A stretch of 64,000 nucleotides of DNA from a virus. The position numbers and the translations under genes were made by a program. Shown here one piece after another: positions 26,173-41,666 of the stretch (its first letter is position 1; each line of letters begins with the position of its first letter). A model generated the notes under the pieces. It worked only from the letters and a program-made list of their open reading frames with translations. It did not search any database and was not told where the DNA came from. Location: the IMG/VR virus record IMGVR_UViG_3300046535_001151, positions 12,272 to 76,271 of that record; one strand, written 5' to 3'.

Positions 26173-26403
26173 ATGCCGCGAGCACAGGTTCATCCGATGG
26201 TTGAAGCGTTGAAGTACTTCGAGGAGGCCCCCCTCCACGACGTCGATACCGCCATCGCGTTAGTCAAGGAGATCGGTCGACGTCGTCACGCAGGAGAATC
26301 CATCCTCACCGTCAATGGGCCGAAGGTGGATCCCCCACAGCGGAAGCGGAGACTCGCCACCCCGCCCGAGAACACCGCGACCCAGCCAGGTGGTGAAGGG
26401 TAG
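26173..26403 (+). CDS. Hypothetical protein
   Basis: AAGGAG SD, ATG at 26173. Confidence 0.6.
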   Translation: MPRAQVHPMVEALKYFEEAPLHDVDTAIALVKEIGRRRHAGESILTVNGPKVDPPQRKRRLATPPENTATQPGGEG

Positions 26404-27560
26404 TGGATCGAGTCCCCTTCATGCTCGTCGGCGACGGTCCAGCCGATCCTACGGGTCTCGGCCGCATCGCTCGGGACCTTGCGGGTCTGATCGTGGCGAG
26501 CGATCTCCCGGTGGAGTTTGTCCAGATTGGAGGGTCTGTCCCTCCACCATGGACCGCGTGGCGACACTTCCCCCTTGATCGATCAGATGACTGGGGAGCC
26601 GCCTGCACCGCGAGATACTGGCAGGATCTCTTCGGGACCCAACCGGGGATCCTCTTCACCGTCTGGGATCCAGGGAGGTTGGTGGACTACGCCAACCTCG
26701 ATCTACCCGTGCAGAAGTGGGCCTATACGGCCATCGACGCGACGAATAGGAATGGCGTGATCAATGGTCCCGCAGCAGCAGCCCTGAGCCGGTTCGATCG
26801 GGTGCTGGCGTACGGGCGGTGGGGGGCGGAGGTCCTGAAGGCGACCTACGGGAAGGAGATCTCCTACCTCCCACATGGGATCACACCAGAGGTGTTTGCC
26901 ATTCCTCCGAGCGTGGAAGAGTACAAGTGGGTTGCGGCCACTCTCGGGCCCCATGTGGGTACCGCCGACGTCCTCGGAATGGTCGCAGCCAATCAGCCCC
27001 GGAAGGACTTCTCGATCTTCTTCGAGACCCTCGCCCTGTTGCGCCACCGCGGTCGGCATGTCTACGGCTGGCTCCATACCGATACCCCCGTGAAGGCATG
27101 GGCGGTGGCGCAGCTCGTGGAGGACTGCGGGCTGCAGCAGCGGATCACCCTGACCCTGGATCAGTTTACCGACCGGCAGCTGGCCCTCCTGTATCAGCGG
27201 TGTGGCTGCACGATGCTGACGAGCCTTGGAGAGGGATTCGGCTATCCGATCGTGGAGAGCCTCGCCAGCGGAACCCCAGTGGTGAGTGGTGAATGTGCGG
27301 GAGGCCGTGAGCTACTCCCCAAGGCTGCGTGGAAGGTGCCCGTGCGTTTACAACGCACCGAGAGCGTATACGCTCTCAAACGGCCAGTGTTCCTCGTGGA
27401 GGACTGGGCCAACGCGGTGGAACGGGCGATGGGGTGGAAGGCAACGGTGGGTGCAGAGGTGGCGGGTGCATACTGCAGGGGTACGGTAGCCCATCTTGAC
27501 TGGGCTGCACTGTGGCCACGATGGCGCGGATGGATCCGTCAAGGGTTGGAGGGCCGATGA
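26403..27560 (+). CDS. Glycosyltransferase family 4 (GT-B)
   Basis: PTGLGR, PHGI, NQPRKD, GEGFGYPIVESLASGTPVV. Confidence 0.9.
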   Translation: MDRVPFMLVGDGPADPTGLGRIARDLAGLIVASDLPVEFVQIGGSVPPPWTAWRHFPLDRSDDWGAACTARYWQDLFGTQPGILFTVWDPGRLVDYANLDLPVQKWAYTAIDATNRNGVINGPAAAALSRFDRVLAYGRWGAEVLKATYGKEISYLPHGITPEVFAIPPSVEEYKWVAATLGPHVGTADVLGMVAANQPRKDFSIFFETLALLRHRGRHVYGWLHTDTPVKAWAVAQLVEDCGLQQRITLTLDQFTDRQLALLYQRCGCTMLTSLGEGFGYPIVESLASGTPVVSGECAGGRELLPKAAWKVPVRLQRTESVYALKRPVFLVEDWANAVERAMGWKATVGAEVAGAYCRGTVAHLDWAALWPRWRGWIRQGLEGR

Positions 27561-27832
27561 CCACGCCGTCTCGTATCAGCGGGAAAGCCATCCTGATCAA
27601 CTTCGACGAACTGAGCGGGGAACAGGCCCTGCTGGCAGAGATCACGATCGACTGTCCGCACTGCGGCACGCACAGCCTGCGGATCGCGGGTCACCACCTC
27701 CGCACCCTGCAGCGGCTACTGGCGGAGTGGATTGAAGACTTTCCTGATCTCACCGGGAATGAATCCGGGATCGAGGTCATCAACCGCATGAAGTACGGGG
27801 GAATCCCTCCGACCGATCCGAGGATGAACTAA
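27557..27832 (+). CDS. Zinc-binding hypothetical protein
   Basis: CPHCG...HH. Confidence 0.6.
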   Translation: MTTPSRISGKAILINFDELSGEQALLAEITIDCPHCGTHSLRIAGHHLRTLQRLLAEWIEDFPDLTGNESGIEVINRMKYGGIPPTDPRMN

Positions 27833-28179
27833 TGGGCCAAGAGAGTCGTTTGAATCCGTTCGCCAAGGAACACCGGGATCTCACGATCACCCCCGGACAG
27901 GTCCACGATGCCTTCAACCGGGTACTCCACGAAGGGGATCTGATCTTCCTCCAGGTGGCCGTGCCGCCGATCTTCCGGGTGCACCGGATCACGAAGCCGC
28001 TCGATCCCAACGCGCCGGCAGGACTGTTGGAGATTACGGTCTCCAGCACGCTGAAGTTTGCTGCGCCACAGGGGCAGGTCAATCAGGAGTTCGTGCGGGT
28101 GATCGAAGCCAGCGAGGCCCAGCCACCCACCGCCAAGCCGAGCCTGGAGATTGTCCGGCCAGAGGAGCCGATCCTATGA
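27832..28179 (+). CDS. Hypothetical protein
   Basis: TAATG-coupled, 115 aa. Confidence 0.6.
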   Translation: MGQESRLNPFAKEHRDLTITPGQVHDAFNRVLHEGDLIFLQVAVPPIFRVHRITKPLDPNAPAGLLEITVSSTLKFAAPQGQVNQEFVRVIEASEAQPPTAKPSLEIVRPEEPIL

Positions 28180-29006
28180 GCCTGACCTTGGCGATTGTCA
28201 CGGCCTCGACCAATCTCGAGCGGGCCGCACCCTGTCTCAAATCATGGCGGAAGGATGACGAGGTGCCGCTGATCATCGTGCTCCAGACCGATCAGGACGA
28301 CTGGCGCACCGTGGTTACCGCCACCCATGTCGTGAGTCGAGACTACCTCGGCACGGTTCCAGCGTTCAGGCTGGGGGTGGACTATGCCCTCCGCGAGACC
28401 GATGCCGACATCATCGCCTGTCTCCATGATGACGTGGAGCTGCTCCAGCCGGACTGGATCCAGCGGACCATTCGCCACTTTGAACTGACCGAGAACTGTG
28501 GGCTGCTCGGGTTCGGTGGGGCGATTGGCCTCGGGGCGGATGACATCTACAAGAAGCCCTACGATCCCATGCAGCTGGCGAGGATTGGGTTCCGATCGAA
28601 TCTGGTCGATGCCGAGGTGCACGGACTGCGAAGTCTGTTGGCTGAACCTGTAGCTTGTTTAGACGGATTCAGTCAGGTCGGGCGGAGGGCCTTCTTCGAA
28701 GGAGACGCCAGTCCGCACACGCCCTCGTCACAGGACTACGAACGGCCGTGGAGCTATCTGGAGGATCACGGGATTGTCCACCACCTCTACGACGGTCTGC
28801 TCGGGGCCCTCGCCGCTCGCCAAGGCTGGGAAGCGTGGTATCTGCCTATCAGGTGTCGACATCTCGGTGGACAGACGGCCGTGGGCGAGCGTGGCTACAG
28901 TGAGTGGGCCAAGCAGCAGATTCCCGAGGGCGATCACGGCTTCTGGCAGCAGAGTCACAAGATCGGGTACGAACTCTTCCGCGATCAGCTTCCGCTGAGG
29001 GTGTGA
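28176..29006 (+). CDS. Glycosyltransferase family 2-like (GT-A)
   Basis: IIACLHDDV, VACLDG, HHLYD, CRHLGG. Confidence 0.8.
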   Translation: MSLTLAIVTASTNLERAAPCLKSWRKDDEVPLIIVLQTDQDDWRTVVTATHVVSRDYLGTVPAFRLGVDYALRETDADIIACLHDDVELLQPDWIQRTIRHFELTENCGLLGFGGAIGLGADDIYKKPYDPMQLARIGFRSNLVDAEVHGLRSLLAEPVACLDGFSQVGRRAFFEGDASPHTPSSQDYERPWSYLEDHGIVHHLYDGLLGALAARQGWEAWYLPIRCRHLGGQTAVGERGYSEWAKQQIPEGDHGFWQQSHKIGYELFRDQLPLRV

Positions 29007-29269
29007 TGGCGCATATCAAACAGCGACGAGAAGCTCTGGAGGCCCAGCCTGATCCTGATCGCGTCCTCGGCAAGATCGCCCGGGTGTTCCCGTTGAAGGG
29101 CTTCGGGTTTCTCAAGGATGAAAACGGCGAGGAGTACTTCTTCCACCGGTCGGAGGTGCTCAGCGGTGGGCCGTTCGATGATCTCCAGGAGGGCTGGCGG
29201 GTCCAGTTCGTGAAGGGTCAGGGGCCGAAGGGGCTGAGAGCGAGTGAAGTTACAGTGCAGCGTCCCTAG
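29006..29269 (+). CDS. Cold-shock domain protein
   Basis: KGFGFL (RNP1), YFFHRS (RNP2), GPKGLRA. Confidence 0.9.
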   Translation: MAHIKQRREALEAQPDPDRVLGKIARVFPLKGFGFLKDENGEEYFFHRSEVLSGGPFDDLQEGWRVQFVKGQGPKGLRASEVTVQRP

Positions 29270-29331
29270 TACGTACGTCTAAGGCCGTCTAGGCCGAAGA
29301 CGGACGGGGTGGAGGTTGTGGTGGTGAACAT

Positions 29332-30150
29332 ATGTTGAGTGTCACATTTCCGGGGCGTGCGGGAGACCTGTTATGGTCGTTGCCCACCGTCCGAGCCCTC
29401 GCCGAGATCCACGGGCCCGTCTCGCTGAGAATCGCCGGCGAGTTCGCCAGCATGCTGCCCCTGCTGCAGCAACAGCCCTACCTCAAAGTCGTGGTGGCGG
29501 ATCATGCCTGGAGTCTCACACCTCCCAATGAGTGGCAACCTCCTACTGTAGAAGAGGGGGAGATTCATCTGGGCTACCGCGGCTGGCCGGATCAACCCCT
29601 CGCGCAGTACATCTACGGGATTCTCAAGTACCACTATCCGCATCTGGCGGTGGCAGGACTGGACCTAGACACCCCGTGGATCACCCTGCCCCCACTGCCG
29701 ACTCGCTGGGGAACCTCTGCGACTCCTGTGGGGTTTACTGAGGCGTGGTTCGAACTGAAGGTCGGCCTGCTCCACATTCTCGATCGCGAATTCGAGTGGA
29801 CGAAGGAGCGGGAGGAATCGGGACAGCCCTATACCGCCCTGATGCAAATGGCAGCACCCGGAGGTCGCTGGGAGAAACTCGGGTGGCCAGCCTACTCATG
29901 GTTGGAATCGGCGGAATTCATCACCGCGAGTAGCTTGTTCGTGGGGGACTGTTCAGCCCTCCATGTGCTCGCGGTGGCCTGTGGGACTCCGGTGATCGTA
30001 GTGGAACCGATGGAGGCACGCTGGAATGACATCTTCTATCCAGTCGGGAAGGTGGGGCGCGTACACCTGGTTACCGGCAACGACGGACTCCCCACATTCG
30101 ACGCTCGGCATGTCGCAGACACGATTCGAGGGGCGCTTAATGGGCGATGA
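29332..30150 (+). CDS. Glycosyltransferase family 9-like (heptosyltransferase fold)
   Basis: GDLLWSLPTVRAL and FVGDCSALHVLAVACGTP. Confidence 0.75.
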   Translation: MLSVTFPGRAGDLLWSLPTVRALAEIHGPVSLRIAGEFASMLPLLQQQPYLKVVVADHAWSLTPPNEWQPPTVEEGEIHLGYRGWPDQPLAQYIYGILKYHYPHLAVAGLDLDTPWITLPPLPTRWGTSATPVGFTEAWFELKVGLLHILDREFEWTKEREESGQPYTALMQMAAPGGRWEKLGWPAYSWLESAEFITASSLFVGDCSALHVLAVACGTPVIVVEPMEARWNDIFYPVGKVGRVHLVTGNDGLPTFDARHVADTIRGALNGR

Positions 30151-30835
30151 AGTCGTCACCACTCCGTATGGGAAATTCTTCGTCGACCCCGAGGACTGCA
30201 TCGGTGGCACCCTGAAAGCTGGCACCATCTGGGACGGGCCAGGATTCCTCCAAGTCGTCCTCAAGGACTACACGACAGTCGGCACGACTGTCATTGACAT
30301 CGGCGCCAACTTCGGCAGCTTCACCGTCTACTGTGCCTCCAAAGGCTACAAGGTGATCGCGGTCGAACCCATGCCGGAGACCCTGAGATACCTCCGTGCC
30401 ACCTTGGACCTGAACCAGGATTCGTGTGCGGACAAGGTGATCCTCCTGCCGTTCGCGGCCTATGACAAGCGGTGCTTCCTGACCAATCACGACTTCGTGG
30501 ATCACAACTTCGGCAGTCCGAGCCTCGTGCCCATGCAGGAGGGAGACAAGCTGTTCGCCGAGGCCGTCCCGCTCGACGACTACCGCATGCTGTTCGGCTC
30601 GGTCGGGTTGATCAAGGTGGATGCTCAGGGCTGTGATGCCGTGGCCATCTTCGGCCTCGAGAAGACGATCCGCAAGCAGCACCCCACCATCGTGTTTGAG
30701 TGGGAAGAGGAGATGGCCAAACCACATGGCTACAACCTGAACAATCTCATCGCCACGCTGGAGGTCTGGGGCTACCAAGTCATCCAGTGGCCGAGCCACC
30801 GGTCGAACTATCTCGCGGTCTGGGGGACACGGTGA
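30140..30835 (+). CDS. FkbM family methyltransferase
   Basis: IDIGANFG, IAVEP, LIKVDAQG. Confidence 0.9.
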   Translation: MGDEVVTTPYGKFFVDPEDCIGGTLKAGTIWDGPGFLQVVLKDYTTVGTTVIDIGANFGSFTVYCASKGYKVIAVEPMPETLRYLRATLDLNQDSCADKVILLPFAAYDKRCFLTNHDFVDHNFGSPSLVPMQEGDKLFAEAVPLDDYRMLFGSVGLIKVDAQGCDAVAIFGLEKTIRKQHPTIVFEWEEEMAKPHGYNLNNLIATLEVWGYQVIQWPSHRSNYLAVWGTR

Positions 30836-31224
30836 GACTGAAGAACTACGGAGCCGGCGAGGTGAGTGATCGACTGTCCATTCTCGCCCTGAAGCGGCTG
30901 TTCGGGACTGAGGCTGGCAAGGATGTCAAACACTTCGAGGCCGAGCACGCGGTCCTGTTGAGTGAGATTCGTACCCGCACCCTGAATGGCAAGTGGTTCG
31001 ATGCCTACACCCAGCTCGCGGCGGTGAATGCGGCTCTGTGGCATGCGGAGGATGATCTCCGATCACTCCGTACCGAGGATCCGCCGGTGAATCTCATCGG
31101 GTGGCAGGCCGCGGGAGAATTGGCCTTCCGTATTCAGGGACTGAACGACCGCCGAGCGGAGTTGGTTCGCCTGATCAACCATGATGCCGGAGACGCGATT
31201 GGAGAAGAGAAGATCAATGGCTAA
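30832..31224 (+). CDS. DUF6165/DUF4254-like helical protein (GT-associated)
   Basis: GEVSDRLSILALK, VNAALWHAEDDLR, NDRRAELVRLIN. Confidence 0.7.
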   Translation: MRLKNYGAGEVSDRLSILALKRLFGTEAGKDVKHFEAEHAVLLSEIRTRTLNGKWFDAYTQLAAVNAALWHAEDDLRSLRTEDPPVNLIGWQAAGELAFRIQGLNDRRAELVRLINHDAGDAIGEEKING

Positions 31225-32164
31225 CCCCCTCCATGTGCTGCTGGTCACCTCGTGGGGTCAGCTCCAATGCGGCATTCAGGCGCATAGCAAGCAGCTGATC
31301 CACTACGTGAAACAGGCCGATCCCGACATCGTGATCACCCCATCCGCCGACTCCCTCGATCCGGTCGAATGTGGAAAGCAGCCTCCACCGGTCGATGTAA
31401 TCCATCTGAACTGGCACCGGGCCCTCCACTCCCGCTGGAGTCCGGCGTGGATCCGTCAGTACCAACAGCTTGGGGTGAAGTTCGTGGTGACCTGGCACGA
31501 TACGATGGGCCACGAACCCCCCGACCAGCTGTCGAAGGAGGTCCACGACGTCGCGGATGCCTTCATCGTCCACGAACCGGTCATCGGGCTGGAGCAGGCG
31601 ATCTACTGGCGACAGGCGGTCCCGGAGATGAATGGCTACCAAGCAGACCGTACTGGGATCTATGGGCGTCCCTTCGTGGGCTCGGTGGGGTTCGACTTCG
31701 GCTGGAAGAATTACGATCGCCTCTGTGAGATTGCCTATGCTGTGGGCTGGGGAGTCGCCCTGTGTGTGCCGGAGATGTCGAAGGATCGAGAGGCCGATCT
31801 CCGTCAGCGCAATCCATGGCTCGTCGTGCGGAGGAACGAAGGACTGCAAGAGGTCCTCGCCCTCCTCCATGTCTGCCAAGCGACCGCCTTCCTCTACGTG
31901 AATGGCAACTCAGGCACCTCGGCCGCGATCCGCATCGGGATTGGGGCGAGGAAGCCGGTGATCGCCATGGCTGGCCAGCGGCAGTTCAGGGATCTCCACG
32001 ATGAGATGGCCATTCGCTGGTCCACGAGCATGGAGCACGCACAAGATCTCCTCGTGGGTCTGCGCTGTGGTGACTGGGATGGACGCACGGTCGAACTCGC
32101 GAATCGTGACAGCTGGAGACACGCGGGACGGAAGCACGCGGAGTTGTATCGGAGCCTGGTATGA
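31217..32164 (+). CDS. Divergent GT-B glycosyltransferase
   Basis: CGIQAHS, DVIHLNWH, GFDFGWKNY, SAAIRIGIGARKPVI, DSW. Confidence 0.7.
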   Translation: MANPLHVLLVTSWGQLQCGIQAHSKQLIHYVKQADPDIVITPSADSLDPVECGKQPPPVDVIHLNWHRALHSRWSPAWIRQYQQLGVKFVVTWHDTMGHEPPDQLSKEVHDVADAFIVHEPVIGLEQAIYWRQAVPEMNGYQADRTGIYGRPFVGSVGFDFGWKNYDRLCEIAYAVGWGVALCVPEMSKDREADLRQRNPWLVVRRNEGLQEVLALLHVCQATAFLYVNGNSGTSAAIRIGIGARKPVIAMAGQRQFRDLHDEMAIRWSTSMEHAQDLLVGLRCGDWDGRTVELANRDSWRHAGRKHAELYRSLV

Positions 32165-32382
32165 CCCCCGACTGGGTGATCGCCCTCCAAGCCCGCTATC
32201 CCCGGAACCCCGCTACCGTGCGGGCCAGTGCTCGGCGCCGGCAGCGACGACTCTACAACCGCCGACGGGCTAAACAGGTCTGTCCCAAATGCGGGGTGAA
32301 GACGCAGAAGTTTGTCTACTGTCTCCACCACCGTACATTACATGCCGAGATGGATCGACGTCGACGAGCACTGGAGAATTGA
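32161..32382 (+). CDS. Basic zinc-finger protein
   Basis: CPKCG...CLHH. Confidence 0.6.
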   Translation: MTPDWVIALQARYPRNPATVRASARRRQRRLYNRRRAKQVCPKCGVKTQKFVYCLHHRTLHAEMDRRRRALEN

Positions 32383-32384
32383 GT

Positions 32385-32708
32385 ATGCCGAGGACCCCCG
32401 CCCCGCTCACCGTGGAACAGCTCAGGCTGAGAGGCCGCTATTCGTGGTGGAACCTCACCGATCCTGACGGCAACGTCGTCGCTGAGTTTCGTGAGGAAGC
32501 GGACGCCCGCGCCTTCGTGGCGCTGCCCGCGCTGATTGAGGCGAGTAGAACGCTGCTTAAATACTGTTCGCGTCGTGACGGTAGCATCGCCTCTCACGAG
32601 GACTGCGTGATGACGTTTGTCGAGGATGGTTCCACGCTCAGCGAGTGCATCGAAAAGGCTCAAGCCGCCCTCGCGCAGGCGGACGGCCCCTCGCAGGAGC
32701 AGGGATGA
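32385..32708 (+). CDS. Hypothetical protein
   Basis: ADARAFVALPAL and AQAALAQA, phage early-gene pattern. Confidence 0.6.
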   Translation: MPRTPAPLTVEQLRLRGRYSWWNLTDPDGNVVAEFREEADARAFVALPALIEASRTLLKYCSRRDGSIASHEDCVMTFVEDGSTLSECIEKAQAALAQADGPSQEQG

Positions 32709-32932
32709 CTGAGCAACATTTACAGGAATGTCTTGAGCGGCTGGACGACGCGAAACGTCTGATCGAGGCAATCCGCGTGGACTTGCGTGGCGCTCAGGAA
32801 TTTCGTGATGCCGTCTTCGATCTGCTAGAAGACACGCCATTTCATTCTAGGGCAGAAGGTTACGACGGACTCTATGACCGTGTGCGTGCAGCAATCAATG
32901 CGGCCCCTGACGGCCCCGAGGAGGCGCGATGA
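32705..32932 (+). CDS. Hypothetical protein
   Basis: ATGA-coupled. Confidence 0.55.
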   Translation: MTEQHLQECLERLDDAKRLIEAIRVDLRGAQEFRDAVFDLLEDTPFHSRAEGYDGLYDRVRAAINAAPDGPEEAR

Positions 32933-33144
32933 GCCTCGTAGCAGATCGCTACTCCTGGGAAGTGGACGAGTGGCGCGAGAAGGCCCACGATGCTTACGCC
33001 AAGCTCGACAGGTGTGAGAAAGAGCGGGAGTTTCACACCAGAAAACTGGAGCAGACCGTGGCATGGCTCACCGTTCAACTTCGTGAGAAGGATGAAATGA
33101 TCGCGGCGTTGAAGGCGGCGGGCGCTGAGAGGACCGACCCATGA
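32929..33144 (+). CDS. Coiled-coil hypothetical protein
   Basis: ATGA-coupled; GAGGAGG SD. Confidence 0.6.
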   Translation: MSLVADRYSWEVDEWREKAHDAYAKLDRCEKEREFHTRKLEQTVAWLTVQLREKDEMIAALKAAGAERTDP

Positions 33145-33229
33145 TCGCAGGCGCTTTTCTCGCAGGGTTTATTGTTGGGGCGTTGTTCTGTTCGTGCCTC
33201 GTGTTCTGGCGGTATTGAGGAGGTCGCTG

Positions 33230-33466
33230 ATGTCTGAGTCCCGCCCCCCACAACGGATTCTGCGTCACCCAGCCACGGTGCGTCTGTTCCAATCGGCCGC
33301 GCAACGATTTCTGGCCTTGCAGGCGCGGCACCGGGAATCGTGCGATCTGCTGTGGGCGGGGACGTTGGCGAGCCAGTTCACAGCGGCGGAACTCTCACTG
33401 CTTAGTGACTACCTATGCCCACGAGACCATCACTTACTCCATGCTATAAAGAAGGCAGGCCGATGA
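33230..33466 (+). CDS. Hypothetical protein
   Basis: GAGGAGG SD. Confidence 0.55.
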   Translation: MSESRPPQRILRHPATVRLFQSAAQRFLALQARHRESCDLLWAGTLASQFTAAELSLLSDYLCPRDHHLLHAIKKAGR

Positions 33467-33660
33467 CCGCGTCCCGCCCCCCTGACGACAAACGGAAGTC
33501 GAAGAAGCCACGCTATCGCCTCCATTGGAACTCTAGCGGCGAGCCACGGCGAGAATTGAAGTGGGCCATCTATGACTGGCGCTTGATCTGTCCAGTGGCC
33601 TACTCGGAGACTCGCGTAGGCGGTCGTAGGTTGTGTGCGTTTCTCAATGCGGAGGCGTGA
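33463..33660 (+). CDS. Hypothetical protein (MTASRPPDD start)
   Basis: ATGA-coupled; repeat-encoded N-terminus. Confidence 0.55.
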   Translation: MTASRPPDDKRKSKKPRYRLHWNSSGEPRRELKWAIYDWRLICPVAYSETRVGGRRLCAFLNAEA

Positions 33661-33929
33661 TGGAAATCGTTGACCCACGGATAGATCCGGCGCTCGTTCC
33701 ATCCGGTTCGCGTGCCGTGGTGATTGCAGAGCACCAGAGCGAATACCGCGACTTGCCATCGGTGCGGACGCCTGACGGCCAAGTGATTACGCGCTGGACA
33801 CTGAGCGACGAGGAGCGAGCGGCTATCGTGCGTGGCGAGGACATCTTCGTGACGCTGCTCTCGCGCGGCATGATCAACCCGTTGTTTGTCACCGTCGGGC
33901 CTGTGAATTGGGCCGAGGTAAACCGATGA
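33660..33929 (+). CDS. Hypothetical phage protein
   Basis: AEHQSEYRDLP...TRWTLSDEER. Confidence 0.65.
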   Translation: MEIVDPRIDPALVPSGSRAVVIAEHQSEYRDLPSVRTPDGQVITRWTLSDEERAAIVRGEDIFVTLLSRGMINPLFVTVGPVNWAEVNR

Positions 33930-34588
33930 CCGCCGCGTCCCGCCCCCCTGACGACACCCCGCCGCAAGTATTTGTGCAGCCTTCGTGGTATCTGGAGTGT
34001 CGGCTGCACGGCCACGATGCTGATTACGTCAACGTGCGCGAAGGTGGTGGCGCGGCCACTCAATGCCGGATCTTTCGATGTCGAGAGTGCGACTGTTCAG
34101 AAACGGTAGAACCGACAACGGCGCTGCATCCCGTCGCCCCTGACGACACCCCGCCGCACGAGGGGGATCCAGTTGAGTTGGATTATCAGCTTCTCTTGCG
34201 GCTAAAACTCGCCGAGGCCGAAGTCACCCGGCTCCGCGAGAGCGACAAAGTTGTGCCGCCGACCTGCACTTGTTGGCTAGGCAAGCGCGATGCGACTTTC
34301 GGCAGTTCCGAAGAACGGTATTATTGCCGGGTTCACGGTGATGACACCCCGCATTGGCAACCGATTGAGACGGCTCCGAGGGAACGTTATGTCCTACTCA
34401 CGGAAGTCACCGAGCCAAGCGCGTCAGACCTGCATCAGCATCCAGACTCCCAGCCAATAGCGCGGACCACGGTTGGCCGACTGGCGCATTGGGACGGTGA
34501 GTGGCGATGGGAACGCTATGGCATCGGCAACATCTCGACTCGGCGGTTGACCCATTGGATGCCTTTACCGGAGCCGCCACATGAATAA
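33926..34588 (+). CDS. Mosaic protein with C-terminal DUF551-like domain
   Basis: WQPIETAP...THWMPLPEPP. Confidence 0.75.
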   Translation: MTAASRPPDDTPPQVFVQPSWYLECRLHGHDADYVNVREGGGAATQCRIFRCRECDCSETVEPTTALHPVAPDDTPPHEGDPVELDYQLLLRLKLAEAEVTRLRESDKVVPPTCTCWLGKRDATFGSSEERYYCRVHGDDTPHWQPIETAPRERYVLLTEVTEPSASDLHQHPDSQPIARTTVGRLAHWDGEWRWERYGIGNISTRRLTHWMPLPEPPHE

Positions 34589-34940
34589 GCCTGACCAGCC
34601 CGTCGCCCCTGACGACACCCCCACACGCCTCCTGACGATGAATTTAGATGAGGCGCTTGCAATGGCAGAAACCATCGAGGAGTTACGCGCCGAAGTCTCC
34701 CGTCTCCGCGAGGAAATGGCCCCTCTCTACAACACGGAGCAGTGGTTGAGGTGGTGTGACATCAGAGTCCTCGAACGCGCTGAAGCGGCCGAGGCCGACG
34801 TCTCCCGTCTCCAGCAGGAGAACGCCCTCCTGAAACGGAGTCTGTCGATGCTGACGAAACAACTAGAACAGAAGGAAGCTGAATGGGAAGCCCAGCGGGA
34901 CGATGAACGCTACCGAGATCGTACATCTGATCATGAGTAA
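34581..34940 (+). CDS. Coiled-coil hypothetical protein
   Basis: AEVSRL repeats. Confidence 0.6.
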   Translation: MNKPDQPVAPDDTPTRLLTMNLDEALAMAETIEELRAEVSRLREEMAPLYNTEQWLRWCDIRVLERAEAAEADVSRLQQENALLKRSLSMLTKQLEQKEAEWEAQRDDERYRDRTSDHE

Positions 34941-35841
34941 CCCCCTCCGTGTCTGTCTCATCGGCAACCTCTCCGACCGTCGCTGTGGCTTCCAGAACGT
35001 GACCCAGCAGATGATCACCGCGCTGGAGCGGACGCCAGCAGTGGACCTGACGGTCTGGGACGGCACCTACTCGGCGATCTACGCCCGTCAGCAGGAAGGG
35101 GAGACCGGCTTCTTCCCCCTCGACATCCTCGACGGTCGCTACGACGTGGTACATCTCATCTGGAACGCCATGACCATGAACCACTACACCGGAGCCCGCT
35201 GGCAGTTGCTGCTCGATCAGGGCATCGTGACCTCGTGGTGGGACGGTGGACCCTCCGATGCCTCCTGCCCATTCATCGACTTCCAGCAGGTGCGGTGGAG
35301 TGACTACCCCCGTGAGGGCTATACCCATCTCGACTACCCCGTGCCCGATTGGATCGATCACCTCCCTCCTCCGGATCCCACCTTCACCGTGGGGGCGAGT
35401 AGTGTGCGTGGAGACGGCATCGCCGAGATCCAGTACATCTGTGAATCCAAAGGCTGGGCACTGAATCTCCCGACCCCCGGGGCGTGGCTGAGTGTCGAGG
35501 ACGAAGTCCGTCGCCTCGCTCGGTCCACCGTGAATGTCTGTTGGTACAAGACCCCGCCGCTCTGGCTGAACCGAGCCTCGGCCCCCTCCATGCTGCTGGC
35601 CTCGCACCGGCCGCTGCTCATTAACAAGGATCTGCTCGTGGCCCACCTCTGGGACGATCCGGAGATTTACCACGAAGCCATCACGACCCGTGGAGAGGAA
35701 GGGTTGGAGTCCGCCCTCATGAAGATCTATCGTGCCGATCCGTTGTCGATTCCCCGGGCAGCCATCGATCGGATGTCCTGGAGTCGCGCCACCCAAACCT
35801 TTGTGTCTGTCTGGAGTGCTGCCCATGCTGCTCGCGCCTGA
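34933..35841 (+). CDS. Divergent GT-B glycosyltransferase-like protein (paralog of 31217-32164)
   Basis: CGFQN, DVVHLIWN, SAPSMLLASHRPLLI, MSW. Confidence 0.55.
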   Translation: MSNPLRVCLIGNLSDRRCGFQNVTQQMITALERTPAVDLTVWDGTYSAIYARQQEGETGFFPLDILDGRYDVVHLIWNAMTMNHYTGARWQLLLDQGIVTSWWDGGPSDASCPFIDFQQVRWSDYPREGYTHLDYPVPDWIDHLPPPDPTFTVGASSVRGDGIAEIQYICESKGWALNLPTPGAWLSVEDEVRRLARSTVNVCWYKTPPLWLNRASAPSMLLASHRPLLINKDLLVAHLWDDPEIYHEAITTRGEEGLESALMKIYRADPLSIPRAAIDRMSWSRATQTFVSVWSAAHAARA

Positions 35842-37072
35842 GAATCTGACCTGCCGCACCACCTGTCGCGCCTGTGGCGGCCCCCTCGATCCGCTCCTCG
35901 ACCTCGGCACCCCAGCCCTGAGCGGCTTCGTCAAACCCGAGGACCCGGATCCGCCCTCCGCTCCCCTCGCCGCGGTGATCTGTCAAACCTGCGATCTGGT
36001 GCAGCTCTCGGTGAGTGTCAACCCACAACTCCTCTATGGTGAGCAGTATTGGTATCACTCGGGCATCAACGAGATCATGGTGGAGGAGTTGAACTCGATC
36101 GCCAAGGAGGTCTGCTGGCGGGTACCACTCACCAGAACGACCAGAGTCCTCGACATCGGCGCGAACGATGGCACCCTGCTCCAGCAGTATGCGGTCCTCC
36201 GCGGGGATCAGTGTCCGACTCGTATGGCGGTCGAACCCGCGGCGAGTCTGATCCATGGACTGGCCGACAAGGCTCATACGGTGATTCACGGCTACTTCCC
36301 GCAGGGCACCTACGCCTTTCCCTCCGCGTCGATCCAGGCCATCACCTCGATCGCCTGCTTCTACGACATCGAGGATCCACGAGCAGCGGTCAGAGAGATC
36401 GACCGGCTCCTCACTGGAGTAGGCGTGTGGATTCTCCAGCTGCAGGATCTCCTCCAGATGGTCAAGGCCACCGCGTGGGACAACTTCTGCTTCGAGCACC
36501 TGACCTACTACTCCCTCCATACCTTCGAACTCCTGCTGCGGGGGACTGACCTCCATGTCATCGCGGTCGAGCCGAGGAAGATCAACGGTGGGAGTATTCG
36601 GATCGTGGTGGCCCGGAGGAGTCAGGCACCGGAGGAATCGGTTGATCGGTGGCGGCAGGCGGAACTCGGGCTGACTAGACGGAGGCTGAGTGTGTTTGCG
36701 TGGGAAGCCAAGGAACACTGCCAGCGCCTCGCCGACACCGTCCAACACTACGTCTTCGACCAAGGCATCCCGATCGACCTCTATGCCTGCTCGACCAAGG
36801 CCAACACCCTCCTGCAGTGGGCCAAGATTGGCCGGCGCCAGATCCGTTTTGGTGTGGAGCGGAGTCCGTTCAAGGTGGGACTGGTCACGGGCTGCACACG
36901 GATCCCGATCATCAGCGAGGAGACGTGGAGAGCGGATCCAGCCCCGATTGTACTTTTGGGAGCATGGCAATTCAGAGATGCCGTGATCAAGCGCGAAGCC
37001 GCGTATCTGGAATCTGGTGGGACCTTCCTCGTCCCGCTGCCCTCGGTGGAGGTGATCCGTGGCCGCTCCTGA
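35825..37072 (+). CDS. NDP-sugar C-methyltransferase (Methyltransf_13/14 architecture)
   Basis: CRACG..LLDLG, CQTCDLVQL, LDIGANDGTLL, EHLTYYS, NGGSIR, STKANTLL, LGAWQF. Confidence 0.9.
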   Translation: MLLAPENLTCRTTCRACGGPLDPLLDLGTPALSGFVKPEDPDPPSAPLAAVICQTCDLVQLSVSVNPQLLYGEQYWYHSGINEIMVEELNSIAKEVCWRVPLTRTTRVLDIGANDGTLLQQYAVLRGDQCPTRMAVEPAASLIHGLADKAHTVIHGYFPQGTYAFPSASIQAITSIACFYDIEDPRAAVREIDRLLTGVGVWILQLQDLLQMVKATAWDNFCFEHLTYYSLHTFELLLRGTDLHVIAVEPRKINGGSIRIVVARRSQAPEESVDRWRQAELGLTRRRLSVFAWEAKEHCQRLADTVQHYVFDQGIPIDLYACSTKANTLLQWAKIGRRQIRFGVERSPFKVGLVTGCTRIPIISEETWRADPAPIVLLGAWQFRDAVIKREAAYLESGGTFLVPLPSVEVIRGRS

Positions 37073-37208
37073 GATCCCCCAACCGATCTGCCCCTTCTGC
37101 GGCTGTGATGACGAGCGGGTCGAAGCCCTCGTCACTACCAAGCGATCCATCGCCATGGCCTGTGGGAACTGTAGCAAGACCTGGTCGATTCCCAAGGAGG
37201 GAGCATGA
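37059..37208 (+). CDS. Small zinc-ribbon protein
   Basis: Own translation ...ICPFCG...ACGNCSKTW; GGAGGTG SD. Confidence 0.6.
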   Translation: MAAPEIPQPICPFCGCDDERVEALVTTKRSIAMACGNCSKTWSIPKEGA

Positions 37209-37384
37209 CCCAGGCCCAGATCCGTATCGGTGTCCTGCTGTTCCTCACCGGCGCTGCGGGCTTCTGCCTGATCGTGGGCCTGACCAATATTCCCCACTGG
37301 AACCGCTGGGGGACAGCGGGGATCGTGTTCTACGTGCTGGCGTATGTGTATAGTCAGGTGACCAAGTCGAGGGGGTTGATGTGA
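37205..37384 (+). CDS. Small two-TM membrane protein
   Basis: Own translation MTQAQIRIGVLLFLTG...GIVFYVLAYVY; coupled on both sides. Confidence 0.6.
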   Translation: MTQAQIRIGVLLFLTGAAGFCLIVGLTNIPHWNRWGTAGIVFYVLAYVYSQVTKSRGLM

Positions 37385-38226
37385 TTCCGATTGTGATGCC
37401 GGTACTGGGAGCCCCTGAACTCACTGAAGCAGCCATCGCAGACTGTCTCGCACAGAGCATCCCCACGAGGCTGCTCATAGTGAATCAAGGGGTCCCCACT
37501 CCGTTCCGGTCGAGGCTGGAGCAGATCGCGGAGGAATACGCCGACCGGATCCTCCTCTGGCATCACGATCCCCCACTGCCCAGTCTGTCGGCGACGTGGA
37601 ACCGAGCACTGAGGTTCTGTTGGGAGTCTGGAGCCGACAGGGCGTTAGTCATCAACAACGATGTGCGGCTGTCGGATCTCACCGTCGGGATGCTCAGCAT
37701 GAACATGGATCGCGCAGACGCCCTGTTCATCACCGCTGTCGGTGTGACTGGAGAACAGTTCGCCGCGTGGCCGGAGAGTGATGCCATGTCCTTCTGGACA
37801 CGAGAGACGACCAGTGGGATTCCCCCGAATAGCAAGGGAGGACCCGACTTCTCCTGCTACCTGATCTCCAAAGAGGCGCACGAGAAGTACCCCTTCGACG
37901 AAGCCTTCATCCCGGCCTTCTGTGAAGACCTCGACACCCACCGGCGCTATATGCTCGGCGGTGACGGCCATCGGATCTTCTCGATCAACCTCCCCTTCCA
38001 CCACATCGGTGGCGGATCGCAGACCCTGAAGTCGATGAGTCCCGAGGCTCGGGCCAAGCATGAAGCCCGAATTGGGATCTCCCGTGCTCACTACAAGGCC
38101 AAATGGGGTGGGGATGTGAACCAGGAACGCTACACGATCCCGTTTGATCCACAGAGTGATCAGGACGGGGTGACCACTCCTGAACTCCAGAAGGCTATTC
38201 AGGCTGCCGAGGCTGTCGGTGTATAA
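37381..38226 (+). CDS. Glycosyltransferase family 2
   Basis: IVMPV, SATWN, VINNDV, FDEAFIPAFCEDLD, HIGGGS. Confidence 0.85.
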   Translation: MIPIVMPVLGAPELTEAAIADCLAQSIPTRLLIVNQGVPTPFRSRLEQIAEEYADRILLWHHDPPLPSLSATWNRALRFCWESGADRALVINNDVRLSDLTVGMLSMNMDRADALFITAVGVTGEQFAAWPESDAMSFWTRETTSGIPPNSKGGPDFSCYLISKEAHEKYPFDEAFIPAFCEDLDTHRRYMLGGDGHRIFSINLPFHHIGGGSQTLKSMSPEARAKHEARIGISRAHYKAKWGGDVNQERYTIPFDPQSDQDGVTTPELQKAIQAAEAVGV

Positions 38227-38674
38227 CTTCACCGGCAAAATCTTCGATGCCGAGCAGGTCGCCTACCTCCTCAGCCGCCTGAGCGTGTTCGATCTCTCCG
38301 CCCCGGGAGGGTCGTTCATGCCGGAGAGTGATCGCGTCAAGGCACGGTTCTATCCCTTCCTCAAGGATTCCTTCAAGGGGGTCTGGGCCTATGCCACCCT
38401 CGTGGTACTGGAGCCCTCCGCGCAGATCGTGGCGCACAAGGACGAGTGGACGGGAGCGTTGACCCGCTACCATATTCCTCTACAACTCAATGAATGGTGT
38501 TGGGTCTATACCGAAGCTGACTGGCGGCGTGACGTAGGATTCAACGGCTGGCAGCAACTTGAACTCGGCTATGTCTATAAGATGAACCCCGGTCTGCCCC
38601 ACGGGGCGGTGAACTGGGGAACCACGCGGCGAATCCACCTCCTGATCGACACCCCGAATGTTACTGAAGCCTAG
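38219..38674 (+). CDS. AspH-like 2OG-Fe(II) hydroxylase
   Basis: LEP...IVAHKD (HxD), RYHIPL, PHGAVNWG..RRIHLLID. Confidence 0.85.
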   Translation: MYNFTGKIFDAEQVAYLLSRLSVFDLSAPGGSFMPESDRVKARFYPFLKDSFKGVWAYATLVVLEPSAQIVAHKDEWTGALTRYHIPLQLNEWCWVYTEADWRRDVGFNGWQQLELGYVYKMNPGLPHGAVNWGTTRRIHLLIDTPNVTEA

Positions 38675-41666
38675 CGCCTGCGCCGGCTGTGTCCTCGCCG
38701 ACAGCGGGAAGGGCTATGCCCCGGCAGACGGACCCGACACCTCTCCACTCCTGCTGGTGGGAGAAGCCCTCGGCGCGACTGAAGCGGCAGTGGGGAAGCC
38801 GTTCGTCGGTGATGCCGGATCCATGCTCGCTCGCCTGTTCAAGATGCTCGGCTGGGAGCGAGAGCACCTCCGGATAGACAACAGTATTCGTTGCCGCCCA
38901 CCTAATGATTGGTTGGAAGGGGCTCCGTGGCAGTATGCCGCCCTCGATGCCTGTGCCCCCTACCTGAACGACAGCCTCGCGAGTCCGTATCTGAAGGTGG
39001 TCGTCCCAATGGGCACCACAGCCATCAAACGGGTCATGCGGATCAGCGGGAAGAAGATCGGCCCGAACAACTTCCATGGCACGGTGACGAGAGATCCGCT
39101 CGACCGCTTCTGGATCGTCCCGACCTTCCACCCCTCCTACCTCCAGCGTGGGGCTCACAATCTGATAGGTACAGTCCTCTGGGATCTGCAGCAGGCATTC
39201 AAGGCGATCACAGACAACCCTCCACCCGATCCCGCGTCCATCGTCTGCGATCCTCCGCTCGAGTGGTTCACCGCTTGGGTCGATCTGGTCATCGCCGCTC
39301 GCCAGCAGGATCCTGCCGCCTATCCGATCTCCTCCGACATCGAGACCCCGGACAAGGCTGGTGGGCAGGATGAAGGGGAGATCTCCTCCGACGATCGCAG
39401 CTTCACGATCCTCCGGTGGAATGTGAGCTGTCACCAGGATGAAGGGATCACGGTTCCGTTCCAAGGTCCGTACATCGACGAGTTGATCCGTCTCCATCAG
39501 TCTCCCGGCCCGATCTGGGGCTGGAACTTCACCGGCTACGACTTCGAGAGAGCCGTCGCAGCAGGCGTGATGAAGGCGGAGGACTTCCACAAGGTCCTCG
39601 ATCTGATGTGGGTAGCCCACCAGCTCCAGTCAGACGTCCCGAGAGGGTTAGGTTTCTGGGCGCCGTTCTATTCCAGCTTCGGCCCATGGAAACACCTCGC
39701 GGATTCAGAGCCTGCTCGCTACGCTGCCATCGACGGCTTCCAGACCCACCGAGTCGGATTCGGCCTGCTGCGCGATCATCAAAAGTTGGGTACCTGGCCC
39801 ACCGTGGCTCGGCATGTCCACCAGCTCCACCACCTCGTCCTGAAGCCAGCCCAGATCATCGGCGTGAAAGTCGACCGTGAGCGGCTGACCCTCTTTAAGT
39901 CCACTTTATCGGACAAAGCGACCACCCTGTTGAACAAGCTCCAAGAGTCCTATCCCGACGGCCTCCGTAACCTGACCCCCAAGCAGGGTCTCGTGTCTCG
40001 TCCCAAGGAGAATGTCCTCCATGTCAAAGCCTCAGCCTTCACACGCAAAGGGAAGAAGCGGAAGGGGAAGGACGTCACCGACCTCAAACTCGATCTCTAT
40101 CGGCAAGCCGTCGTGGTCGAGCGTGAACTTGTCCGAGAAGTTCGCTGCTGCGAAAGCTGCGGTGGTGTGGGCGTGCATACGAAGCATCGATGCAAAGATC
40201 GATCGCTTGTCCCGGCAACGGTCCTCCGCCTTGAGACGGTTACTCGCTATTTCTGGTCGGAGCCGTTCAACCCGGACAGCTGGCAACAGGTCCTGAACTA
40301 CATCAAGTTCAAGAAGCATCAGCCCGGGAAGGCCAAGAAGACCAAGAAGGATTCGACCGACCGAGAAACCCTGGACAGGCTGTCACGAACCGGCGATCCC
40401 CTCTACCTCACCCTGCTGGACTACCGCGCCGTGATCAAAGTGAAGGGCACCTATGTCGAAGGCACCGAACGGAGAATGGATGATGAGGGACGAATCCATC
40501 CCGAACCTACGTTCAAGCCGTCCACCTCAAGGCTGTCCTATGTCAACCCTAACATTACGAATGTCATTACCCGGGTCCGTGAGGGACGTGAGAATCTGGC
40601 CGCAGGCTTCCGTCGGTGTCTTGTGGCTAGTCCGGGATGTCGACTGTTGGAAGTGGACTTTGGGGGAAGCGAACAGGTGGATGTTGGGTGGTACTCCCGT
40701 GACCCGAATCACATCCGTCTGGCTCGGTTGGGGATCCATGCCGGTCTCGCCAGCCACGTCCTGAAGCGGCCCTACGACCCAAGCTGGAGTCCGGAGGTCC
40801 TCGGGGCCTACTTCAAGGAGATCAAGCAGGCCGAGGATGAGAAGACCCAGGCGGTCTATGAACGATCCAAACGGTTCGTCCACGGCTTCAGCTACGGCCT
40901 GACGATCCCCGGCATGGTCCTTCAATTCCCGGAGACCTTCCCGAACCACAAGGTGGCGGAGGAATACGCTGATATCTTCCGGTCGATGGCCCCGAAGATT
41001 CCCGCGTGGCAGCGACAGGTCAGGGAGCGGGCCTTCAAGCAGCATTATCTCGGTGGACCGGGCGATCATCCCTTCGGGTACAAACATTGGTTCTGGTCGG
41101 TCTTCACCTACAAGAAGATCACCGCGGGGCAGTACTGGGCGATCGTCCAGAAGATGAAGCGGAAGGGGATCGAAGAAGGCGATTCTCCGGTGGCGGTGAT
41201 CAACGGGCAGTACTTCCGGATCAACCTTGGTGAGGATGCCAAACGGTGTGTGGCGTTCTACCCCCAGTCCACTACCGCGGGGAAGCTCAAGGAAGCGATG
41301 CTGCGGTTATTCGATCCTGAACAGCCTGCGTACATCGGAGATGTCTACTTCGGCAAGACCCCCCTCCGCGCTCCAATCCACGATTCCCTGCTGCTCGAGA
41401 TTCCCACCAAGGTGTTCGATCTCACCGCGAGTATCGTCGTGCAGGAGATGCAGCGACCGCTGACCATGATGCCGTGTCCAGAGGAATGGCAGCTCGGACC
41501 CTACCTCTCGACTGGGGTCTCGGTGAAGGTCGGGACCGATGGGGGTGACTGGGCGAGTCTCTCTACGATTGCGGTGACCGAACTTGGAGTGGGCAGTGAT
41601 GTGCTGACCACTGCCGCGGTGGGGGATGAAGAGGAAGTCGCTGACCTTGGTCGGGAGGTGGCTTAG
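38658..41666 (+). CDS. polA: DNA polymerase family A with N-terminal family-4 uracil-DNA glycosylase domain
   Basis: UDG: CxxC, VGEALG, PFVG, NSIRCRPP, HPS; exonuclease: DIET, WN...YD, YAAID; polymerase: RLSYVNPN, motif A DFGGSE, motif B K..HG..YG, motif C HD. Confidence 0.92.
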   Translation: MLLKPSACAGCVLADSGKGYAPADGPDTSPLLLVGEALGATEAAVGKPFVGDAGSMLARLFKMLGWEREHLRIDNSIRCRPPNDWLEGAPWQYAALDACAPYLNDSLASPYLKVVVPMGTTAIKRVMRISGKKIGPNNFHGTVTRDPLDRFWIVPTFHPSYLQRGAHNLIGTVLWDLQQAFKAITDNPPPDPASIVCDPPLEWFTAWVDLVIAARQQDPAAYPISSDIETPDKAGGQDEGEISSDDRSFTILRWNVSCHQDEGITVPFQGPYIDELIRLHQSPGPIWGWNFTGYDFERAVAAGVMKAEDFHKVLDLMWVAHQLQSDVPRGLGFWAPFYSSFGPWKHLADSEPARYAAIDGFQTHRVGFGLLRDHQKLGTWPTVARHVHQLHHLVLKPAQIIGVKVDRERLTLFKSTLSDKATTLLNKLQESYPDGLRNLTPKQGLVSRPKENVLHVKASAFTRKGKKRKGKDVTDLKLDLYRQAVVVERELVREVRCCESCGGVGVHTKHRCKDRSLVPATVLRLETVTRYFWSEPFNPDSWQQVLNYIKFKKHQPGKAKKTKKDSTDRETLDRLSRTGDPLYLTLLDYRAVIKVKGTYVEGTERRMDDEGRIHPEPTFKPSTSRLSYVNPNITNVITRVREGRENLAAGFRRCLVASPGCRLLEVDFGGSEQVDVGWYSRDPNHIRLARLGIHAGLASHVLKRPYDPSWSPEVLGAYFKEIKQAEDEKTQAVYERSKRFVHGFSYGLTIPGMVLQFPETFPNHKVAEEYADIFRSMAPKIPAWQRQVRERAFKQHYLGGPGDHPFGYKHWFWSVFTYKKITAGQYWAIVQKMKRKGIEEGDSPVAVINGQYFRINLGEDAKRCVAFYPQSTTAGKLKEAMLRLFDPEQPAYIGDVYFGKTPLRAPIHDSLLLEIPTKVFDLTASIVVQEMQRPLTMMPCPEEWQLGPYLSTGVSVKVGTDGGDWASLSTIAVTELGVGSDVLTTAAVGDEEEVADLGREVA

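Follow-up and report, generated by a model that had tools for sequence, protein, structure and literature searches.

The fusion gene and its polymerase active site

The stretch of DNA analysed here (the window, 64,000 nucleotides) corresponds to bases 12272-76271 of the IMG/VR virus record IMGVR_UViG_3300046535_001151, the 76,271-bp genome of an uncultured phage that is rated 100% complete and has a GC content of 61%. A single open frame on the plus strand (38658..41666) encodes P0001, a protein of 1002 aa in which a uracil-DNA glycosylase (UDG), a 3'-5' exonuclease and a family A DNA polymerase (PolA) are fused. The Pfam profiles PF03167 (2.2e-22, aa 24-168) and PF00476 (2e-25) matched this protein, and the score of 90 bits for PF00476, compared with a cut-off of 34.3, identified the polymerase part as family A. 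The profile search of the complete genome detected P0001 as the one PolA match and did not find PolB, leaving P0001 as the only recognisable DNA polymerase of the phage. The binding pocket for the incoming deoxynucleoside triphosphate (dNTP) in this polymerase was found to carry His and Tyr at the positions of F762 and R754, respectively, of E. coli Pol I.

The UDG domain (aa 24-168; 38727..39161, plus strand) aligned in phmmer to solved family-4 UDGs, including T. maritima TM0511 (1e-18). E36 in the GEALG motif, N75 and H158 of HPSY were kept, and C8, C11, C79 and C99 matched the Fe-S ligands of family-4 UDGs. In a 132-sequence family alignment, H158 was invariant and E36, E42 and N75 were at least 90% conserved. 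With these catalytic residues retained, the UDG domain is apparently active. The exonuclease domain (39240..39857, plus strand) has intact DxE (D227, E229), D295 and YxxxD (Y355, D359) motifs, all five residues of which were invariant in the same alignment, and hhalign also matched this domain to the exonuclease region of E. coli Klenow. The polymerase part aligned to Taq and Klenow. An AlphaFold2 model of P0001 built with 38 family sequences was confident along the whole chain, with a predicted local distance difference test (pLDDT) of 90.2 and a predicted template modelling score (pTM) of 0.87. Foldseek with this model retrieved Klenow, KlenTaq and Pol theta at E-values of about 1e-20 and target template modelling (TM) scores of up to 0.79.

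The register of the active site was determined by MAFFT L-INS-i alignment of 47 family members with E. coli Klenow, T7 gp5, N4 gp39 and SPO1 gp31 exon 2, as well as by hhalign comparison of a 38-sequence family profile with E. coli PolA (probability 99.95, E 1.6e-37) and with T7 gp5. The same register was obtained from MAFFT and both hhalign comparisons. Motif A lies in a strand and turn at aa 661-674 (LLEVDFGGSEQV; 40638..40679, plus strand) that contains EVDFGGSEQV. The segment DFGGSEQV starts at D667 (40656-40658), the metal-ligand Asp corresponding to D705 of E. coli, and includes E672, the steric-gate Glu corresponding to E710. H734 of E. coli is H694 in P0001. The O helix with motif B occupies aa 728-747 (40839..40898, plus strand), and the AlphaFold2 model placed this helix at residues 728-745. 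Within motif B (YERSKRFVHGFSYG, Y734-G747, 40857-40898), the Lys at position B2 (K758 in E. coli, K522 in T7) and the Tyr at B4 (Y766 and Y530) are present as K738 and Y746, the Arg at B1 (R754 and R518) is replaced by Y734, and B3 (F762 and Y526) is H742; the residue following K738 (K+1) is R739. The O helix is directly preceded by a family-specific insertion of approximately 20 residues (aa 706-727; 40773..40838, plus strand), which ends in K723 and contains a helix at residues 712-723 in the model. The hairpin of motif C (aa 903-916, APIHDSLLLEIP; 41364..41405, plus strand; strands 903-907 and 910-916) contains IHDS, where H908-D909-S910 (41379-41387) correspond to H881-D882-E883 of E. coli and D909 is the second metal-ligand Asp. 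The span 40656-40898 thus begins at the Asp of motif A and closes with the final Gly of motif B, leaving motif C outside.

A sequence-only reading of this stretch had proposed R754Y, F762H, E883S and DFGGSEQV as motif A from an alignment by eye. MAFFT and hhalign reproduced these assignments, and the residue at position 762 remained non-canonical on the formal alignment, being His and not one of the recognised types Phe, Tyr and Leu. A shifted register with R736 or R739 at B1 was rejected, as the two methods agreed on the register, R736 was not conserved (Pro in many members), and the members having Arg at B1 aligned in the column of Y734. Among the residues that define family A, the motif A Asp, the motif C Asp, K758 and Y766 are all present in P0001 and in 194-207 of 207 relatives, whereas the O-helix Arg (R754) and the motif C Glu (E883) are replaced by Y734 and S910. 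Because every other defining feature of family A is present, the lack of R754 and E883 is treated here as a variant within the family.

The thumb of P0001 also carries an insertion (aa 485-534; 40110..40259, plus strand) that has no counterpart in E. coli PolA in the hhalign alignment. It forms a long beta-hairpin with DSSP strands at 485-498 and 521-534, and contains C498, C501 and C512 in a CxxC...HRC arrangement, in which the Cys columns were at least 90% conserved and H510 was present in close relatives. This Cys-rich hairpin looks like a zinc ribbon. The hairpin is located roughly at the place of the thioredoxin-binding loop of T7 and the thumb extension of phiKMV.

The O-helix variant across the clade and among known polymerases

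A word-indexed search detected more than 430 homologues of P0001, nearly all of which were UDG-PolA fusions of approximately 1000 aa, many of them on contigs of 67-73 kb, and an exhaustive HMMER search gave 686 clusters at 50% identity with E < 1e-30. For the residue frequencies, 207 complete polymerase domains of metagenomic relatives were counted. The B1 column contained Tyr in 186, Arg in 20 and Phe in one. At B3, 186 members had His, 15 had Tyr and four had Leu, and Asn and Thr occurred once each; Phe was never found at B3. Such prevalence of His at the 762 column and Tyr at the 754 column (186/207 each) indicated that the observation in P0001 is not due to chance. The K+1 residue was Arg in 182 members, His in 11 and Lys in four. 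K723 was Lys in 205 of the 207, and the MAFFT alignment showed no counterpart of the insertion harbouring it in E. coli, T7 or SPO1. The TGR motif takes the form T-x-R in the clade, with Gly in only 32 members. The residues for two-metal catalysis, exclusion of ribonucleoside triphosphates (rNTPs) and proofreading were strongly conserved: the motif A Asp (D667) was found in 206 and the steric-gate Glu (E672) in 205 members, the B2 Lys and the motif C Asp in all 207, and the B4 Tyr in 194. The I709 column contained Ile in 174 and Ser in 22 members, and Ser, as in S671 of P0001, was confined to the window phage's own subclade. The motif C triplets were HDS (182), HDE (13), HDD (6) and HDA (4), and the E883 column was composed of Ser (184), Glu (13), Asp (6) and Ala (4). 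The change from HDE to HDS, which the sequence-only reading had counted among the pocket alterations, is therefore present in P0001 but is not unusual, as SPO1 has HDS and N4 has HDA.

His at B3 was also found in relatives of 26-30% identity and in the GenBank uncultured-phage record MW202489 (YEKMKRVVHLSNYL, RETNKKLTHGRNYK, REVAKRVVHLTAYR, RQTFKSFAHGTNYL). When a FastTree phylogeny was rooted with E. coli and N4, Arg-Leu and Arg-His were the B1-B3 combinations at the base, and most of the tree was Tyr-His. Tyr at B3 was seen in about eight separate places, and the parsimony count was about 13 changes for B3 and about 12 for B1. Judged from these sequences, the combination of His at B3 and Tyr at B1 is a lineage trait of a large clade of phage polymerases and not an oddity of a single genome. 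The clade is essentially known only from metagenomes and contigs of metagenome-assembled genomes (MAGs). The tblastn search against 50,697 phage records detected no isolate polymerase above 27% identity, the terminase of the window phage was at most 23% identical to that of any isolate (the best being a Tunturiibacter phage), and two MAG contigs, from Acidobacteria and Gemmatimonadales, carry relatives, a hint at the groups in which hosts may be sought.

Some other variations were observed within the clade. A small separate sublineage with Asn at B3 (L022, L031, P0174 and P0227) has motif A changed from ..IEAV to ..(A/M/E)EP(T/C), a second coordinated variant of the pocket. The basal members P0229 and P0265, having Leu at B3, carry DYKSFH as motif A, in which His takes the place of the steric-gate Glu (E710 position). 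The homologues P0052, P0076, P0087, P0092, P0109, P0111 and P0118 are polymerases of 1250-1360 aa with an intein (PF14890), HNH (PF13392) or LAGLIDADG (PF03161) domain. As such domains occur in several homologues, the polymerase gene of this clade is a recurrent target of selfish elements.

The published classification of PolA (Czernecki et al. 2023, NAR, PMC10201439) comprises 19 clusters, in which B3 is limited to Phe, Tyr or Leu and the residues crucial to catalysis are reported as strictly conserved, which agrees with the statement in the sequence-only reading that phage PolAs have been described with F, Y or L at position 762. P0001 shares with the UDG-PolA class of that study the order of family-4 UDG, 3'-5' exonuclease and family A polymerase in tailed phages, but its clade differs in having His at B3, Tyr at B1 and T-x-R for TGR. 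As the clade is essentially metagenome-only, it would form no cluster in that data set. P0001 belongs to family A and to the UDG-PolA architectural class, and is neither N4-like nor SPO1-like. N4 gp39, the representative of N4-like PolA (cluster #17), resembles P0001 in the UDG-exonuclease-PolA layout, in an insertion immediately ahead of the O helix and in a motif C without Glu (HDA in N4, HDS in P0001). N4 gp39 nevertheless has a canonical R..K..F motif B (RQDSKAPTFALTYQ) and has lost the UDG catalytic residues, and the two proteins share 23% identity over 283 aa. Membership of P0001 in cluster #17 was rejected, since P0001 has His at B3 and keeps E36, N75, H158 and the four Cys of the UDG.

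The polymerase gp31 of SPO1, like those of SP-10 and SP-15, has a UDG-like N-terminus fused to PolA and shares HDS in motif C with P0001. In contrast, motif B of SPO1 is of the R..K..F type (RTASKKIQFGIVYQ), and SPO1 encodes a dUMP hydroxymethylase and replaces thymine with 5-hydroxymethyluracil (hmU), whereas the genome of the window has no gene of the thymidylate-synthase family. The pairwise comparison of P0001 with SPO1 exon 1 detected no significant similarity. The possibility of a polymerase of an SPO1-like hmU phage was rejected, as motif B differs and PF00303 had no match in the complete genome. T7 gp5 (Tyr526 type) is similar to P0001 in the local sequence of motif B (KTFIYGFLYG in T7, KRFVHGFSYG in P0001) and in the polar ring at B3, but retains the Arg at B1 (Arg518) and lacks a UDG domain. 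His is also not a recognised type in the Phe/Tyr/Leu scheme for position 762 of virioplankton PolA (Nasko 2018; Keown 2022), while His and Tyr interchange at B3 inside the clade of P0001. Only the sequences with F, L or Y at position 762 were retained in Keown 2022, a filter that by design leaves this clade out of such surveys. No description of a PolA with His at position 762 was found in the full-text literature, although this absence is not proof, as most subscription journals lay outside the search.

The clade departs from the canon at B1, B3, the TGR glycine (T-x-R) and E883 together, and its UDG domain, catalytically intact to judge by its residues, is always fused to the polymerase. These features could reflect an O helix that alters sugar or triphosphate selectivity for other ends, such as tolerance of rNTPs or damaged nucleotides, replication at low dNTP pools, or a second editing step coupled to the UDG. 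We regard this as unlikely: the steric gate E672 and Y746 are kept, which argues for normal exclusion of rNTPs, and the explanation overlaps in part with the Tyr-like role of His742 that is favoured below.

The glycan-type cluster and the question of DNA modification

A cluster of glycan-type genes spans 26403-38674, upstream of the polymerase gene. It includes a family 1 glycosyltransferase (GT1, 26403-27560), a GT2-like gene (28176-29006), an FkbM methyltransferase (30026-30835), a complete nucleoside-diphosphate (NDP)-hexose C-methyltransferase on the plus strand (35732-37072; PF08421, PF13489 and PF08484, 1.5e-26), a weakly matching GT2 (37381-38226), and an open reading frame (ORF) on the plus strand for an AspH-like 2-oxoglutarate (2OG)-dependent oxygenase (38219..38674; PF05118 at 4.2e-08), the last gene of the cluster, which overlaps the start of the polymerase gene and is regarded as context rather than as belonging to the polymerase feature. 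A minus-strand ORF at 35717-37297 (526 aa), the longest in that region, gave no family match and was discarded in favour of the plus-strand C-methyltransferase as the real gene; the overlap of ORFs there is a trap for length-based gene calling at 61% GC. The "modification cluster" that the sequence-only reading had placed beside polA thus exists, with glycosyltransferases, methyltransferases and an oxygenase, although its recognisable enzymes are of the NDP-sugar types used in glycan synthesis.

From this neighbourhood the same reading had drawn the interpretation that the pocket changes were an adaptation to modified nucleotides or templates. In this scenario, Y734, H742, S671 and S910 would accommodate modified dNTPs or the modified or glycosylated templates produced by the adjacent cluster. 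Several observations favour it. UDG-PolA fusions occur in SPO1, SP-10 and SP-15, phages with modified uracil derivatives (Czernecki et al. 2023, PMC10201439), the UDG catalytic residues are kept in P0001, the cluster with its glycosyltransferases, methyltransferases and AspH-like oxygenase runs into the start of the polymerase gene, and Ser at the position of I709 (I614), as in S671, is specific to the subclade of the window phage.

The cluster was compared with 39 related IMG/VR loci with 10-kb flanks, which were found with a 12-sequence alignment. Homologues of the cluster were present upstream of polA in 12 of them, so that about one third of the related phages share the cluster at the same position, and the B3 residue in these loci was His in six, Tyr in five and Asn in one. 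The cluster was absent from ten related loci with enough upstream sequence, nine of which had His and one Asn at B3. No homologue of the AspH-like ORF was detected at E < 1e-5 in the 39 loci. The lack of modification genes in close homologues, which the sequence-only reading had named, together with ordinary dNTP selectivity, as evidence against its own proposal, was indeed seen for two marker genes of the cluster: homologues of the C-methyltransferase and GT2 were not found anywhere in three complete terminal-repeat genomes having the Y..KR..H motif, whereas two cluster-bearing genomes, used as positive controls for this marker search, matched at E-values of 1e-88 to 1e-99. One relative without the cluster carries genes for a RecD-like helicase, an integrase and an MT-A70 methyltransferase upstream of polA. 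A complete relative of 70 kb, with terminal repeats, has a tyrosine integrase and an MT-A70 adenine methyltransferase directly upstream of polA (L012:7397-9992), at the place that the glycan cluster occupies in this phage; PF00589 integrase was not found in the genome of the window.

Searches for known enzymes of nucleotide modification pointed in the same direction. The thymidylate-synthase family (PF00303), whose fold is that of the dUMP and dCMP hydroxymethylases, was not found in the complete genome, while the control for this search matched in 10 genomes, and no homologue of PurZ/AdSS was found in the genome of the window. Scans of about 40 other ORFs with PHROGs and Pfam identified no nucleotide-metabolism enzyme, many of these ORFs receiving no assignment. 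A search of the genome for Tet_JBP (PF12851) carries no weight either way, as its control matched nowhere.

Since the motif occurs in genomes without the cluster and the cluster-bearing relatives vary at B3 (His, Tyr or Asn), the pocket variant is decoupled from the neighbouring glycan cluster, and a link to modified nucleotides is not supported. The cluster enzymes themselves (NDP-hexose C-methyltransferase, FkbM, GT1 and GT2) are of glycan-synthesis types, the genome has neither a hydroxymethylase of the thymidylate-synthase fold nor PurZ, and HDS is common to unrelated UDG-PolAs. Moreover, in the ternary complexes of T7, Taq and Klenow, the residue at position 762 contacts the deoxyribose of the incoming dNTP rather than the C5 edge of its base. 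We consider the modified-nucleotide scenario to have a low probability, and the sequence-only reading is partly supported overall.

Predicted role and meaning of the variant O helix

Position 762 is the best-studied specificity switch of family A, affecting discrimination against dideoxynucleoside triphosphates (ddNTPs), speed and fidelity, and has also been used as an ecological and phylogenetic marker of phage life style. In the reading that we favour, with a probability of roughly 0.7, P0001 is the replicative polymerase of a UDG-PolA clade and the O-helix variant is a lineage trait, in which His behaves like Tyr and R739 and K723 compensate for the missing Arg. One chain joining a family-4 UDG, a proofreading exonuclease and a family A polymerase would serve as the replicase of the phage. 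His742 is proposed to take the role of Tyr526 in T7, with a ring that lies against the incoming dNTP's sugar and is able to donate a hydrogen bond. A polar, Tyr-like role at B3 fits the clade because His alternates there with Tyr, Leu, Asn and Thr in scattered positions of the tree, and never with Phe. The enzyme is thus predicted to be of a "Tyr762-type", fast and with weak rejection of ddNTPs, rather than of a "Phe762-type"; the low, T7-like discrimination against ddNTPs is predicted because the local motif KRFVHGFSYG is closest to KTFIYGFLYG of T7.

The contact of Arg754 with the gamma-phosphate would be replaced by the clade-specific basic residues R739 (K+1) and/or K723, the latter on the inserted helix that directly precedes the O helix. 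Of the 186 members with Tyr at B1, 180 were basic at K+1, compared with 16 of the 20 members with Arg at B1 (Fisher p = 0.009). In this reading, the variant is no adaptation linked with the adjacent glycan genes or with modified dNTPs.

Several points weigh against this reading. We infer both the Tyr-like behaviour of His742 and the compensation by R739 and K723 from sequence. The Fisher value for B1 and K+1 was not corrected for phylogeny and can serve only as a hint, the counts of changes depend on an approximate FastTree topology, and the 207 sequences are the nearest matches of P0001, so that the frequencies describe its own clade and not all UDG-PolAs. In addition, about half of the ORFs in the genome have no family match, among which a nucleotide-modifying enzyme of a new type could be hidden, and modification by unrecognised genes could also be clade-wide.

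E883 belongs to the classical carboxylate triad, and the loss of this Glu and of R754 could be taken to mean that the polymerase domain is degenerate or inactive and that another enzyme replicates the phage. Even though residues crucial to catalysis are reported to be strictly conserved in all 19 published clusters (Czernecki et al. 2023), this is highly improbable, as D667, E672, K738, Y746 and D909 hardly vary even among relatives of about 30% identity, the rest of the motif is shared by some R-type and Y-type members that differ at B1, E883 is likewise absent from the functional polymerases of N4 and SPO1, the complete genome encodes no other recognisable polymerase, and the gene in several relatives contains inteins, as is usual for essential enzymes.

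Beyond the replicative role proposed for P0001, its clade may constitute a major PolA subfamily outside the 19 published clusters, in which the nucleotide contact has been rebuilt with His at B3, Tyr at B1, a basic K+1 residue and an invariant Lys on an inserted helix, giving a distinct nucleotide selectivity that the surveys of position 762 have missed. We put this forward tentatively, at somewhat less than even odds.

His at B3 and Tyr at B1 are the unusual parts of the pocket, and HDS is not. The observation itself is solid and should be of moderate interest to specialists in polymerases and viromes. The present analysis removes one argument for regarding the glycan cluster as a DNA-hypermodification pathway, and the clade exposes a blind spot in the surveys that keep only the sequences with F, L or Y. 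As natural enzymes, the members of this clade may have an unusual selectivity for sugar or triphosphate that would interest biotechnology. With His at position 762, this large natural clade adds a fourth natural "762 type" to family A, and the O-helix Arg, reported as conserved in the published classifications, is dispensable in at least one structural context.

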